Assembly (NCBI GenBank): GCA_951406725.2
Contig: OX597829.1
Location: 52,576,001-52,640,000 of the forward strand
Direction of reading: 5' to 3'
From: Octopus vulgaris
Taxonomy: Eukaryota
Length of the DNA: 64,000 nt
Shown here: in pieces, positions 5,242-45,473 of the stretch
Layout: each line of letters opens with the position of its first letter
Position numbering within the stretch: position 1 is the first letter of the stretch
Notes under the pieces: model-generated
Seen by the model: only the letters and a program-made list of their open reading frames with translations
Told to the model about the DNA's origin: nothing
The model's database searches: none
Program-made: the position numbers and the translations under genes

Positions 5242-5943
5242 TAAAACCAAACTTCAACTGAAGAAGAAATACTCACTATGTAATGATAGAATGTGGGGTT
5301 TATTTTCACAAGGGAGAACAGTAAATTGTGATTTGGTATTTTTGCTGGTATACTCTTCACTTTAAAAATTGATTTGTGTATGTCAAAAGAAATCCATATT
5401 ACAGTTTAAATTTGTGATACAAAGCTTAAATGAATAAAATTAGAATTTTAATCCAATTTTTATCTCGCCACACATTTCCATTCTCTTGGTTGGTGCTTAA
5501 TGTCTGAGAAGAAATGGACTTGCAATTGATAACAGTTTCTGATCCGCAAGAAAAGATTAGTTTCCTGTCTGATTAGCATTATGAAAACCATCTATTGATC
5601 CTTTCAATCACAGTAATTATGAGATCAAGTGTTTTTTTTTTTTTAGTATTCTATTAATCTTTTTACTGGTTTTAGTTAATCTGCCACTATTCTAGGACCT
5701 CCACCTTTATTTTATTTTATTTTATTTTTATGTGTTTGTTTTTACTTTAATCATAATTATAGTGAGCTGTACCTTCATACCTATTTCCACAATTTGTTCT
5801 AGATTGAAATCTTAGAAATAAATTCTACCTTAAGAAACTCATTTTTTTTTCTAATTTTCTTGTATATTTGCAATATTTCTGTAAAAAAAAAAATCCGTTG
5901 ATCTCTTGATTGTCTTAATTATTATTTATTATTTATTTTACAG

Positions 5944-6022
5944 ACTTTCATAAATGATGTACGAATTCCCGAACAAGAATATATAACATTGGAAGAAAAA
6001 TATACAATACGCCTTGGATTTT
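5944..6022 (+). CDS. CEP170: Internal coding exon of a CEP170-like centrosomal protein gene (C-terminal part of the FHA domain); 79 nt, phase 0 to phase 1
   Basis: Acceptor ttttacag at 5936-5943. Translates as [26 protein letters not shown], matching (from memory) human CEP170 [26 protein letters not shown]. Ends at a U12 donor ATATCCTTT. Upstream exons were not found in the window. Confidence 0.9.
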
Positions 6023-6380
6023 ATATCCTTTGTTTAATATAAAATTCAACCAAAACTACCAGGTTGTACATTTTGAGTAAAATTCCATTCTTAGTCAAGG
6101 CATCATATAATCGAACAGGAAATGAAATACTACTCTGCTAGTGTGGTGGTTGAGTGTAGTGGTTCAAATCCAAGTTATGATTTTGAAAATAGAGTGACTG
6201 GGTCAATGATTTCAAAGTCAAGCCTTTTTAAAATGTCTGAGGTTGTCTTTAAGATGATTGGTTTGGATGATGTTGCATCACAGGGTTTTTGTTTTGTTTT
6301 GTTTTGTTTTGTTTTGTTAGGTTTTAGAATTATAATAGTTTTGGATTCTGGGAATTGATTATTTGTCTATGTGTTTGTGT

Positions 6381-6680
6381 GAAGGCATGTGACCTAGTGG
6401 TTAGGGTGTTGATCTCTCAATTTAGTGATCATGGATATGATTCCCGGACCGAGTGGCACATCGCGATCTTGATCAAAACACTTTCATTTCATGTTGTTCC
6501 AGTGTGCTCAGCTTAAACAGGTAACCCTGTAGTGGACTAGCCTTCCAATCAGGGGAAATGTTGGCCACCTGTCTTAGCCAGCAGGAGGGCATCATTTGAA
6601 AGGTAAAACAATGCAAAACATTGTCACCAGCAATGTAACAACAATTGATAGTCTGCTCTATCAGATGATCACGGGATATG
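6381..6680 (+). mobile_element. Diverged tRNA-derived SINE whose tail is shared with the SINE at 56822
   Basis: tRNA-like head gaaggcatgtgacctagtggttaggg. Tail ttagccagc...tcatttgaa...aaaacaatg...attgtcaccagcaatgt matches about 57024-57130. Confidence 0.6.
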
Positions 6681-7510
6681 TATTTGTAGATACACTATTG
6701 GCGTTAGGAAGGGCATCCAGCTATAGAAACTATGACAGATCAGATTAGAGTCTGGTGCAACCATCTGGTTTGCCAAACCTCAGTCAAATCATCCAATCCA
6801 TGCTAGCATGAAAAGCAGACGTTAAACGATGATGATGATGATGATGACTTGGTGTGTGCAGGGGATTTCTTCAGGTTCAAGATACTTTATAGGGTTTTAG
6901 TGTTATGTTTATAATTTCAGAAGCCATGAAGCTTTTGAGTTTTTTTTAAAAATTTCCCTATTGTTCTTTTTTTTTGTTTGGGCGTGTGTGTTTTTCTAAT
7001 AGAAGGAAGTGGTCCAAATTATGATCTGAGTGGAAGGTGTATATTTTATAGTTCTATTTTCCTTATATGTTGCTGCAATCTTTTGTTAGAGAAATATTTT
7101 TATAAAGTATATGAGTATGGAAGTTGTGATGATGTGATCAGATCTCTATCAACATACACAGTGCAGATGAAGTGTGAACACAATGCATAACAGTACAATG
7201 TCTAGACCAGTAATATAATATCCACTGGGCAGTCAACTAAATATTTATGAGTAGCCTGTAAATTCAGTAAATCAGATAGCATTTTGTATCCATTTGTCAG
7301 ATCAATGTTTCCTCTTTTATTTTGGTGTTAAGGAATGCAGCTCCACCAACAACCTTAACTGAGCTCTTTGAAAGCAGCTCTTCTTCATAAGTCACAATTT
7401 GTAGCATTTGAAAAACATATTACTAACAGTGAATTATATTTACATTTTGGTTTTGTATTCTTATTAGATGAATAGTTGAAATGGTTGAAATCTCTCATTT
7501 GCAATGTTTT

Positions 7511-7788
7511 TTGCCAGCCTAGTCTGGCACCTGTGTCGGTGGCACAAAAAAAAAAACACCATCTGAGCGTGGCCGTTCGCCAGCCTCGTCTGGCACCTGT
7601 GTCGGTGGCACATAAAAAGCATCCACTACACTCATGGAGTGGTTGGCGTTAGGAAGGGCATCCAGCCGTAGAAACACTGCCAGATCTGACTGGCCTGGTG
7701 CAGCCTTCTGGCTTCCCAGACCCCAGTTGAACCGTCCAACCCATGCTAGCATGGAAAGCGGATGTTAAACGATGATGATGATGATGAT
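7511..7788 (+). mobile_element. Retroposon family D (RTE-like 3' tail ending in (GAT)n) with two internal 62-bp units
   Basis: ggttggcgttaggaagggcatccagc...cccatgctagcatggaaagcggatgttaaac(gat)n. Other copies at 6698-6846, 12730-13057, 14773-14928, 20876-21237, 41440-41624 (+) and 33398-33509, 24684-24860, 53613-53760 (-). Confidence 0.8.
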
Positions 7789-8664
7789 ATGCATATTCTG
7801 GCAAGTAAACCAACCCTTGTTTCACCTACGATTTTTCAACCTATATATCCTAACTTGAGTCAAATGAAGGTCTGAAAAAGAATTTTAAAGATTTGTATCC
7901 AATATGGTGCAGTGTCTATGTTATGTTCAATACGGCACAAGTAAAACCAAATGCCCCTATTTGAATGGTGTGCTTTCAATTAATCTGGTCAGACAAGCTG
8001 CCAACAACAATTTAAATCTTCTATTACCAGACATCCCCATTCAAGAAATGTGGCATGAATGTCTGGTCTACATTGGTCTGAAATATCTCATCTGTGCATG
8101 CCATGATTATAGATCATAGCAGTAGTTCACCAACTGAACTGGTTGGTCCTGGCTGTTGACCATTTATTTCTGTTCATCATCTTGTGGTATTTGACATTGA
8201 CCCAATTAGTTCATCTGCTGAAATAGTTCTCATTCTTACTAATGATAAAGATTGAAATTTGTAAGTTATAATTGGTCTTTAAGAAAATTAACAGAATTTT
8301 TATAGATTCCAATTTAAATGTATTAAGACTATTGAAATAAGAGATGGTGATGGCAGCTGCATGCCTTCAAGAAGAGAATGGATAGTACGAGGTGAGTGAT
8401 GTATGTCAATATTGAGTGACCTACAAGAGAGGAAGTGGTGACTAGAAGTGTGCGTGTGTGTGTGTATTTTATGACTCAGGCATAGCAATACATTCATGCT
8501 TTAGAGTAAGCCATCAGGTTGAGAGTTAATATAAATTAATGAATGACAAATAAGAGGAATTATGCAATCAATGTTCATTAGTTTACAGCTGTTTCTGCTA
8601 TAATTAAGCAAGTGTCCAGAGCTGAGCACTCATTATGTAATTTTATAATCAAGTTTATATACAA

Positions 8665-8957
8665 CTAGCAGTATCGCCTGGCGTTGCTCGGGTTTGTAAG
8701 GGAAATAACTATATAAGCATTTTTAGAGAGTTATAGCCATAAAATAGCAAAAAAATGCATTAAAATGGAAAAAAATTATGGTAAATTTTTTTTTAAATCG
8801 TAGACTCATCGTAGGCACACGCTAATACCCAGAAGGGCTCGATATGAATCACGACTATAAGATACCTGGTTTTGGTTAAACTGCATCGCAAAATGTGGGA
8901 GTAGTTAGGAATCTAAATCGTAGGAGACAGACACAACCTTACTTTTATATATAAAGA
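8665..8957 (-). mobile_element. Non-autonomous Helitron
   Basis: Minus strand: A|TCTTTATATATAAAAG ... CCCGAGCAACGCCAGGCGATACTGCTAG|T, giving 5' TC, 3' CTAG, a subterminal GC hairpin, insertion between A and T, and no TSD. Confidence 0.82.
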
Positions 8958-9323
8958 TATACAGGATGATTTACATATATGTGTTTTAGAAGTTTTAAAG
9001 GCGGTGCTCCAGCATGGCCGCAGTCAAATGACTGAAACAAATAAAAGTAAATAAAAGTAAAAGGCAAATATGAAATTTGAAAATATGGTTAGGTTGATTT
9101 GTAATTTTAACTTCACTTATACTTTAATAATTTATTTTATTTTAAATCTTTTTGAATACTATCAATTTCTTTTTTTTATTATTAAAAATGAAAAAGGAAA
9201 TGATATTCAGAATAAACATACTGATATTTATTAATGTTTAAGTTTGTAATAATCATTTCTCAAGTCTATTTTTATTTCTTCATAATTTAAGAGATCTCTG
9301 TTTTTTTCCCTTAACCATTGTAC

Positions 9324-9448
9324 CTCAGTCAGTATATTATATAGAACAGGTATTTGATACTCCATATAATGTTGAAGAGGAAAACGGTTCCCCTGATAAA
9401 ATAACTACATGGCCTTCAAATTCTCATGAAACAATGGATGAAGTTGAT
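9324..9448 (+). CDS. CEP170: Internal coding exon of the CEP170-like gene; 125 nt, phase 1 to phase 0
   Basis: After the AC acceptor it reads (S)QSVYYIEQVFDTPYNVEEENGSPDKITTWPSNSHETMDEVD with no stop and ends at a consensus donor GTAAGT (9449-9454). Confidence 0.82.
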
Positions 9449-10645
9449 GTAAGTATATTAATCCATTTTATGTTATTAGTAAATATTAATAAAAGGAAAT
9501 TGAGGAAAGAAAAACGTTTATGTTCCCAAGAATATTAAGCTCATCTTTAGAGAGTATATTTACAATTATTCACTGTCTTGTTCCTGGATAAAAAGCCAGC
9601 ACATAAATTCACATTATGCTGTAGTAGCAGTGCTATATTGTAAACATTACCAATACCATATATTTTAATGTACATGTGTTGTTTAAATGCCAGAAGGTGT
9701 AGATTTTTTCATCCAGGGGAAATTCCTTTCAAGATGTATAGTGTTAAAAAACACAATATGCTTCAGAACTAGATGAAACAAAATCACTCCCAGTGCATAA
9801 TTTTATTCTTGGATGTATACATATTTTCTGAATGGTTTCTGACTAAGAAGCTTTATTTTTATTACATTTTTATTTAATAGATCATTGGTTCTCATTTAAT
9901 TTGTAGCAGAACTTAAAAGAAAAAGAAAATCACAGATCCCATATCTACATTCTATACACAATCTCTGCTACCCTTAAATGCTAACTGAAACAAAAACTGT
10001 TTTGGAATTTATTCATTTGTATATAAAAGAAAAAGCAGCATGAAACTTGTTTTAAATATGGTGAAATGCTACTTTTTACTGAAGGAAATTTTTATTAAAT
10101 TTTATTAAAAGGCATCTTGTAGACCTCCAGGATTTTTTTCTACAGAACTCTAGGGTTCCCTAGAACCCTTTCTAAGAGCCATCGCATTATACTACTTCAT
10201 TGTTAAAAATAAAGGCTCTTAGTTTGAATCCAGTATAGGACAAAGTATGTACCCAGGAATAAGATACCTCTTGACCATCTGAAGTGAAACCAGCCACAAT
10301 ACAGTGAAAATATAAGCTTTGTAAATTATACACTCTGTAGTTTTAATAATGAGAGGAATTATAATTTGACAACAATTCATATCAGGCAGTGATTTAAAAG
10401 AATATTTGCATACAAATGCAATTTACAAAATAGTTTGGAAACTGTTTTAAATTTTTTGTTTTTCTTATTGTCCCTTAACATATGTATATATTCAGAAACA
10501 GCATTGTATATCTGGTGTTTTGCACAAGGAAAAATGCTAATATTAAATTTTTCAAATAATTTTATTGCCAAAGACATCATAACTGGAAAATTGTCAGTTT
10601 TTCCAGATTCTAATCCTACAATCCATATATTTCATAGCATAATAC

Positions 10646-17839: not shown

Positions 17840-18474
17840 GTAATAATAATCCTAATAATTTTAATGATAATAATAAATTAAACAATATACAATACACACA
17901 TGCTGTATGTGGGCGGGTGATTTTACAAGCACACACATGCGTGTGAGTGTGTTTAATCTATAAATTTTGAATATGAGAATCTCAGATATTAGAAACAACA
18001 ACAACAACAAACATAGATTACGAATTGTTCACTGGAATATTATTAAGTATGAAATAATGAATCTGAGGTCTTACAATTTATCCAGTTGCTGCAGCCCCCC
18101 CCCCATACACACACCCCACACACAAAACAGCTAGTCTTTTTTTTTGATAAAAAAACAAAATAAAAGATAACTAGGGATCATAAAACCTCTGTACATTCAC
18201 CCAATTCATGTAGTTAATAATTGTATATTTCATGAGTGCTTCCCCCCCGATCATCCAAGTGTGACTGAATTATTGTGTCGCCGACAATAAAGGCAGAATG
18301 CAGATTGGTGGTTAGTGTGCAATGCATAGTCGATGCCATGCTTTTCTGCAATGGTACATTGAATGTACACTCAATAGTCCATTCAATGATTTTTCAGATA
18401 CTTTAGGGTTTTATCAATCCCAGATGGACAAAAGGGGAAGTCTAACCCCGTGAACTGTTTAGAATTAAATGAGA

Positions 18475-18828
18475 TAATAATAATAACAATGATGATGATG
18501 ATGATAATAATAATTATAACAGCAACAATACTACTACTAATAATAATAATGCTAATAATGACAATGACAACAACAATAATAATGCTAATAATAATAATGA
18601 CAATGACAACAATGATAATAATGACAACAACAACAATAATAATAGTAATAATAATAACAACAACAATAATAATAATAATGATAATATAACAACAACAATA
18701 ATAATACCAATTAATAATAATAATAATAATAATAATAAACAATAATAATGATAATAAACAACTATAATATTAATAATAACAATAACAACAATAATAATCA
18801 CAACAACAACAACAACAATAATGATAAT
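18475..18828. repeat. Compound trinucleotide microsatellite (AAT/AAC/GAT)n, about 350 bp
   Basis: Direct reading; it generates the spurious poly-I/L/T ORFs at 18383-18801. Confidence 0.95.
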
Positions 18829-19319
18829 GGGAAAATGTGCATATCAATCTTTTGCCATGACAACAGAAATGTCCTTCTTTGTCACAATGCCAAGTTTTGT
18901 GAAAGGGGCTGAAATTGTTGGTTGAATTGGTTTGGCATACAGCTGTTAAATACTTTTGCCAAACTTAGCAATCTTGGGTAGTTAATTGAATAAATAGCAT
19001 AAACCACTGAGAGGGGCCACTCACTGCTTTGTCCATCTGCCCCACATTAAGTTGATCACGAATCAGTGAGGGTTGGTGTCTCTGTGGTTAGGGGTTTGAA
19101 GCAACAGATGTAAAAATTGCCATCAAATCATACCTTGCTGTCTTTGAGTAACTTGGACACATTGGATAATGATGTCTAATTGACACTGCACGTCTGGAAA
19201 AGATAGATGTATAACGCGTTTGGAGATGATCCGTTCCGTTAAGTGTTTGACCTGTGTCTAACCAACAGCAACAATGGTCAAAATTTCTGCTTTAAATTGA
19301 AACTTTTTTTTTTATTGTT

Positions 19320-20245: not shown

Positions 20246-20875
20246 ATAAAACATTTGTTGAGTTCTTTTTAAATTAGTTTATCCAAAATGATGCATTCTT
20301 ACATAAAACAAAATTTCACAATTGATTAATTAAAAAAAAAAACAAAAAAAAACGATAAAGCAAATGGACTTTGTTTCACGAATGTGTGACAAAAAAGTTA
20401 TGAATTTAAGTTCTTCCTCGCAAATAATTTATAAGTAGAAGTCAATTATTTTGTTTATTTCTTTCATACTAGCTTGCCTATTATGGAATGTCATTTAATC
20501 CATATAGTTATAATCCGGTATGTATCTCATTTCATTCATGTTTGCACTTGTGTTTGATTATATATCAAAAGTCTCATCGTTGCACCCACCATATGGCACA
20601 ACCCAAATCCTTCCTTCCTTCCTTCCTTCCATTCCTTCCTTCCTTTCTTTCTTAACCAGAATGACTTTCTCGATCTGGTTTGCAGTATTTTCCCTTTTTT
20701 TAAGTATAAATCTTATCCATCTAGTTACTTAGTAAAATGTGTGTGTGTGTGTGTGTGCCCAATTCAATGTTAGTGATTTAGTAAGCATTTATTAGTTATT
20801 GTGGAATGATTATTAATGTTTAATGTCCTGATTTTGAAGATAGTCACATGTTATGTAATGATTATGAATTCAAGA

Positions 20876-44986: not shown

Positions 44987-45473
44987 GAAACTGTAAATCA
45001 AGAGGCACCGAATCATGAAGAATTTGAAGAGCAGCAAAGGAGCAATGGAAATCTTCAGCAGAATTACGAGAGCAGCTATAATGGATACATATCAAACGAT
45101 CCCAATCATACGTGGCCTAGAAAGAGGCGTCCAAAAAGCTGGACATCTCAGTCAAATTATAGTTCTCAGCTTGCTGAGGAGAAGAAAAGATCTTCTTACC
45201 ATGTAGAGTCCACTGTTGATGCTGAGCAGGACTATCTCAACAGTATTCCACCGTCCATAATGAAGCCTTCACATTCTACTCTTGGAAATTTACAAAGCCA
45301 AAATAATAATCTTTCATACACAAAAAGTGACTTTGTTTCTATGGAGGGTGTACCATCAGCTCCTGAAAAGACACAACCACCAGTGAGTCACAATAACCAG
45401 ATTTCAGTGAAATCTCCTTCATACTCCGAGGCTGGTGGAGCAAATGAAAATAATACCTACCGAACTAGAAATG
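44987..45473 (+). CDS. CEP170: Probable next coding exon of the CEP170-like gene; 487 nt, phase 0 to phase 1, low-complexity S/N/Q/E-rich region
   Basis: Acceptor ttttctatttaaag (ends 44986). 162 stop-free codons, ETVNQEAPNHEEFEEQQRSNG...NDPNHTWPRKRRPKSWTSQ...GGANENNTYRTRN, then donor G|GTAAGA at 45474. Phase matches the preceding exon and ORF 45260 is in the same frame. Assignment to this gene rests on strand and phase, not on recognised homology. Confidence 0.72.

Follow-up and report, generated by a model that had tools for sequence, protein, structure and literature searches.

The locus analysed here raises the question of whether two short exons in the genome of Octopus vulgaris, lying about 3.3 kb apart, are joined across an intron that starts with AT and ends with AC, and, if so, whether the minor (U12) spliceosome is responsible for its removal. 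The window, a 64,000-nt stretch of genomic DNA, had previously been described from its letters alone as holding such an intron in a CEP170-like gene. According to the analysis, Octopus CEP170 contains an AT-AC intron that is spliced out, situated at the codon that is also interrupted in human CEP170 and CEP170B, likely excised by the minor spliceosome and likely present already in the bilaterian ancestor. We assign this reading a probability of about 95%.

Intron Ends, Motifs and Flanking Exons

The features of the locus are listed in Table 1. The 79-nt exon is preceded by a polypyrimidine tract and a CAG acceptor, starts in phase 0 and ends in phase 1. It is 100% identical to O. vulgaris proteins and is included in the spliced contigs described below. 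The intron that follows opens with ATATCCTTTG and closes with TTTTTTTCCCTTAACCATTGTAC, and its 3' end reads T7-CCCTTAAC-CATTGTAC. The 125-nt exon has no stop codon in the joined frame and is directly followed by GTAAGT, as had been claimed; if the intron were retained, the frame would be closed by a TAA at 6040–6042. The coordinates, AT-AC ends and U12 signals given in the preliminary description were thus borne out by the sequence and by the RNA junction 6022^9324. The exception was the branch site, which had been written as TCCTTAAC; the actual letters at 9308–9315 are CCCTTAAC, agreeing at seven of eight positions, with one mismatch.

Table 1. Features of the CEP170 locus in the window.
Feature	Position	Strand	Basis and remarks
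79-nt coding exon	5944–6022	+	C-terminal part of Pfam FHA of CEP170; residues 73–98 plus 1 nt
AT-AC intron	6023–9323	+	3,301 nt, phase 1; contig junctions
U12-type 5' splice site ATATCCTTT	6023–6031	+	Sequence; junction start in 4/4 runs
ATG and GT donor (AG/GTGAGT) of candidate intron-internal exon	8378–8391	+	Fits start of O. vulgaris model CAI9734797 (P0002)
AG acceptor, 32 nt 5' of AC	9290–9291	+	Fits CAI9734797; reads through branch site into 125-nt exon
Predicted U12 branch site, T7-CCCTTAAC	9301–9315	+	Sequence motif; 8 nt before intron end
AC 3' splice site	9322–9323	+	Junction end in 4/4 runs
125-nt coding exon	9324–9448	+	Predicted last FHA β-strand (residues 102–108) and linker; GT donor
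45-nt in-frame cassette exon, same gene (AG/GT)	20473–20517	+	Included in some Octopus models, skipped in others
487-nt downstream coding exon, same gene (AG/GT)	44987–45473	+	Match to Octopus proteins

The consensus of the U12-type 5' splice site is RTATCCTT(T). The same motif is seen in the supplement rows for human CEP170 and CEP170B in PMC8280824. We considered whether the motifs could by themselves prove the intron, and rejected this, as both the donor and the branch motif occur at chance level: RTATCCTTT has one match against 1.98 expected, a count reached in 85 of 100 shuffles, and TTCCTTRAC with at most one mismatch has 35 sites against 34.9 expected. The combination CCTTRAC..YAC is found three times on the plus strand of the window, once at the spliced end of the intron. 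The intron is taken to be real because the RNA junction is present in all four runs placed on the locus and because the protein match continues across it.

A second TCCCTTAAC lies at 10471–10479, in the GT intron 3' of the 125-nt exon, and is followed by AG (10492–10493) rather than AC; the site at 10471–10493 matches none of the Octopus proteins compared with the window. The AT-AC intron also contains several copies of high-copy genomic repeats, and the repeats at 6689–6855, 7500–7790 and 8650–9050 have very deep cover by RNA-like contigs.

Transcript Evidence for the Junction

Of 24 sequencing runs listed, 21 were guessed to be RNA and none is on record as RNA. Contigs of four RNA-like runs, from four studies, were placed on positions 5800–9600. 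The joint 6022^9324, which skips the 3,301 nt from AT to AC, was present in contigs of all four, with no ambiguous letters and with 80 nt on the shorter side. The joining contigs had depths of 47.4, 11.2, 5.5 and 3.0, and their listed pieces were confined to the two exons, as expected of spliced RNA. Among the joints listed for the four runs, from which 13 weaker ones were omitted, 6022^9324 was the sole joint between the two exons, and none used other, GT-AG sites in its place. A genome-wide match found a single copy of the 79-nt exon, and a processed gene therefore does not account for the joined contigs.

Contig pieces with a depth of 2–5 were present in the AT-AC intron and in the upstream GT-AG intron alike. 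Contig depth was rejected as a gauge of intron retention, which contigs cannot measure.

Host Gene and FHA Domain

By sequence similarity, the host gene is Octopus CEP170, in agreement with the CEP170/FHA host and the molluscan origin proposed beforehand. The 79-nt exon matches PDB 4jon, the FHA domain of human CEP170 (E = 1.1e-6), and the 125-nt exon matches O. vulgaris proteins at 100%. The joined peptide aligns to the human CEP170 FHA domain without gaps across the junction (E = 1.3e-26), and this domain is its sole PDB match at E < 1e-5. The Octopus models are 1,231–1,594 aa long, and several are named CEP170- or CEP170B-like in the public annotation. A Pfam search with one of them (P0003) found no second family at E ≤ 0.001; a relative in Dreissena carries the name “CEP170 C-terminal domain-containing”.

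The Pfam FHA domain (PF00498) covers residues 35–97, and therefore ends at the junction. The intron had been placed where the FHA domain ends, which holds for this Pfam boundary; it does not hold for the predicted fold, as the next exon encodes a further predicted strand. In the AlphaFold model of a fragment of 162 aa from O. bimaculoides (pLDDT averaging 60, and about 78–87 over residues 51–110), this strand is at residues 102–108, so that the intron is predicted to precede the last FHA strand. The preceding FHA exon, which ends in GT, is located outside the window, ≈19.3 kb to the 5' side of the 79-nt exon.

Downstream, the four spliced contigs match one base, a G, past 9448. We infer that this base agrees with the exon at 44987 and not with the cassette at 20473–20517. 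A long low-complexity triplet-repeat tract at 18383–18843 has repetitive open frames on both strands.

Annotation in Octopus and Other Molluscs

We retrieved 19 Octopus proteins, from O. vulgaris, O. sinensis and O. bimaculoides (the main cluster is represented by 15 of its 22 members). The AT-AC join was present in all 13 models that bear an FHA domain. The suggestion that the intron was probably mis-modelled by GT-AG annotation therefore fails for Octopus.

The comparison with other molluscs used protein models. Thirteen of 14 non-Octopus matches aligned through the junction with a difference of at most one residue. In a model from Solemya velum (P0029), the sequence runs past the junction after residue 99 into D-I-L, and the following strand is absent. 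We infer that this model may represent read-through of an ATATCCT donor, which suggests that the same intron could be present in a bivalve.

The Same Position in Human and Mouse CEP170

The earlier statement that CEP170 is a minor-intron gene in human proved correct. The supplement of PMC8280824 catalogues introns of human CEP170 and CEP170B as AT_AC, U12 A-type, and in the supplement of PMC6717393 both mouse Cep170 and human CEP170 are entered as minor-intron genes; passages of two preprints also describe CEP170 in this way. The splice contexts given in PMC8280824 place the cut in both human genes at G/AT, between the first and second bases of the Asp codon next after F-G-Y. The alignment between octopus and human is gapless at the junction, and therefore codon and phase agree: as aligned, the octopus intron occupies the same codon as those of human CEP170 and CEP170B, in phase 1. 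The shared codon and phase make it most likely that the intron was inherited from the bilaterian ancestor, as had been supposed, the two lineages compared being mammals and octopus.

In PMC8280824, the values reported for the human CEP170 intron include a PSI of 0.19 in control HeLa cells, rising to 0.81 once CENATAC had been depleted for 48 h, and PSI values of 0.23 and 0.10 in other controls.

Molluscs are described as relatively rich in minor introns by Larue and Roy (2023; PMC10639083), whose survey covers both O. sinensis and O. bimaculoides. The accessible part of its supplement had no match to CEP170; the intron-level online database of that study probably already contains the octopus intron. 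Literature searches on CEP170 with minor or U12 introns and on U12-type introns in Octopus (preprint supplements excluded) found no paper on the octopus intron, a search on the minor spliceosome in cephalopods found no paper, and the supplement of PMC7367187 gave no match.

Minor-Spliceosome Components in the Genome

The genome has matches to all four minor-spliceosome snRNAs above the Rfam cut-offs, with scores of 94.5 bits for U11, 125.2 bits for U12, 96.9 bits for U6atac and 83.8 bits for U4atac. There are five matches to U11, three to U12, two of them over the cut-off, three to U4atac, one of them over the cut-off, and at least 43 matches to U6atac over the cut-off, dispersed across many contigs. 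Exons of the CCDC84/CENATAC family were found as three matches that lie within 36 kb. Duplex folding of the donor at 6023–6031 gave −6.6 kcal/mol with the 5' end of the genome's U11 and −6.4 kcal/mol with its U6atac. The branch site gave −9.8 kcal/mol with the genome's U12. The snRNA pairing is consistent with the assignment and not diagnostic, because stronger pairing with U12 is obtained for other 19-mers within the intron (reaching −13.4 kcal/mol); duplex energy was for this reason rejected as proof of the branch site.

The 13 best U6atac matches are all full length. In 11 of them a repeat also found in or near the window begins within 7 nt along the T-tail, compared to three of the 13 for the upstream flank. 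No convincing target-site duplication was found at these 13. The dispersed copies are probably U6atac-SINE chimeric retrocopies, or arose when SINEs were inserted into the T-tail. In mammals, chimeras of U6 and LINE-1 have been described.

Proposed Mechanism and Alternatives

Around the observed junction, host gene, position, phase and four minor snRNA genes, the steps of removal can be drawn from the established pathway, and U12-type removal in octopus is likely. U11 would pair with ATATCCTT at the donor, U12 would pair with the CCTTAAC box of the branch site, whereupon U4atac/U6atac.U5 would join and U6atac would take the place of U11. Branching would occur at A9313 or A9314, and the intron would be cut out at AT and AC. 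This would restore the split Ser codon and supply the rest of the protein, which consists of the last FHA strand, as predicted, and ≈1,400 further residues. If the intron were kept, translation would end six codons on and the RNA would likely be degraded, and FHA-bearing CEP170 would therefore depend on minor splicing. That minor introns are rate-limiting is a general hypothesis, which according to PMC8280824 is questioned in the field at the level of single genes.

A possible addition to this reading, which we consider doubtful, is that the intron acts as a regulated bottleneck, and that the major spliceosome joins an intron-internal exon (donor after 8391) to the acceptor ending at 9291, giving a CEP170 that has lost the FHA domain but still has the C-terminal, centrosome-targeting region. 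The bottleneck is favored by the high baseline retention of the human intron (PSI 0.10–0.23 across three data sets in PMC8280824), against which low-depth intron pieces are seen in the upstream GT-AG intron of octopus as well. The bypass is suggested by CAI9734797, which has no FHA domain and whose first residues fit exactly an ATG at 8378, the donor after 8391 and the AG at 9290–9291; the donor matches the consensus AG/GTGAGT. The supplement of PMC6717393 lists human and mouse CEP170 for CAT6 (alternative 5' site) and CAT7 (alternative 3' site) around the orthologous intron in several tissues, the filter for these categories being passed in five of 11 mouse columns and six of eight human columns. 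In human CEP170, the C-terminal region targets the protein to the centrosome, according to PMC13019896. However, only one of the 19 Octopus models has this form, no joint to the acceptor at 9290–9291 was among the joints listed for the four runs, and no contig in the four runs covered 8213–8466, although absence in contigs weighs little. We also considered the FHA-less models of other molluscs as support for the bypass and rejected them as not diagnostic. The other FHA-less Octopus models and those of bivalves begin at the first Met past the junction or elsewhere, which does not reveal the start of the transcript, and the FHA-less scallop and Gigantopelta models begin before the junction. A broader form of this idea is an ancient isoform switch, shared by octopus, mouse and human, in which the major spliceosome would link an internal exon to an AG immediately 5' of the U12 branch site and give an FHA-less CEP170 that escapes control by the minor spliceosome; we regard this as improbable.

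It is very improbable that the intron is of the U2-type AT-AC class and is removed by the major spliceosome, as is a minority of human AT-AC introns. Such introns do exist, 85 of them being included in the analysis published as bioRxiv 10.1101/2020.08.06.239418, and there is a run of T residues before the 3' end of the octopus intron. Against this reading, the U12 donor ATATCCTTT of the intron is complete, a CCTTAAC box lies 8 nt from the intron end, and its human ortholog is U12-type and responds to CENATAC depletion with the rise in PSI reported in PMC8280824. That splicing proceeds mainly through nearby GT-AG sites, with the AT-AC form being minor or a guess of the annotation, is scarcely credible: AG dinucleotides are available at −32, −30, +5, +9, +21 and +26 from AC, and CAI9734797 uses an internal GT-AG pair, but 6022^9324 is the sole exon–exon joint listed, in all four runs, and all 13 FHA-bearing Octopus models use it.

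Significance and Comparison with Known Systems

The transcripts remove the intron as predicted, at the human CEP170 codon, and it is therefore real, likely ancient and of an already well-known kind of minor-spliceosome intron. The public Octopus annotation already models it correctly, and its position is that of a catalogued human minor intron. The result is a transcript-confirmed AT-AC intron whose codon, phase and subtype are the same in cephalopods and mammals. The gene is centrosomal, and the sensitivity of its human intron to CENATAC is strong. Specialists expect such conservation of minor introns, and the surprise is therefore small. The octopus intron could be used as an RT-PCR reporter of minor splicing. 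The bypass exon, if it is real and common to mammals, would matter more, as the ratio between FHA-bearing and FHA-less CEP170 would in that case be governed by minor splicing. By category, the octopus candidate resembles the CAT6 and CAT7 entries of mammalian CEP170.

The closest known system is the intron of human CEP170 (chr1:243200836-243211885), which, as recorded in PMC8280824 and PMC6717393, has the same AT-AC ends, ATATCCTT donor, codon and phase 1 as that of octopus. It differs in its length (≈11 kb, compared to 3.3 kb in octopus), in its branch box (TTCCTTAGC, compared to TCCCTTAAC), in the distance from this box to the intron end (9 nt, compared to 8 nt) and in the split codon (Asp, compared to Ser in Octopus); dependence on CENATAC is shown for the human intron only. 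The donor sequence of mouse Cep170 is identical in the supplement of PMC6717393. In the vertebrate paralog, the human CEP170B intron (chr14:104877964-104878442), as catalogued, likewise follows F-G-Y in phase 1 and has AT-AC ends and a CCTTAAC box, as in octopus, whereas the introns of the paralog are short, with 479 nt in human CEP170B and 416 nt in mouse Cep170b, compared to 3,301 nt in octopus.
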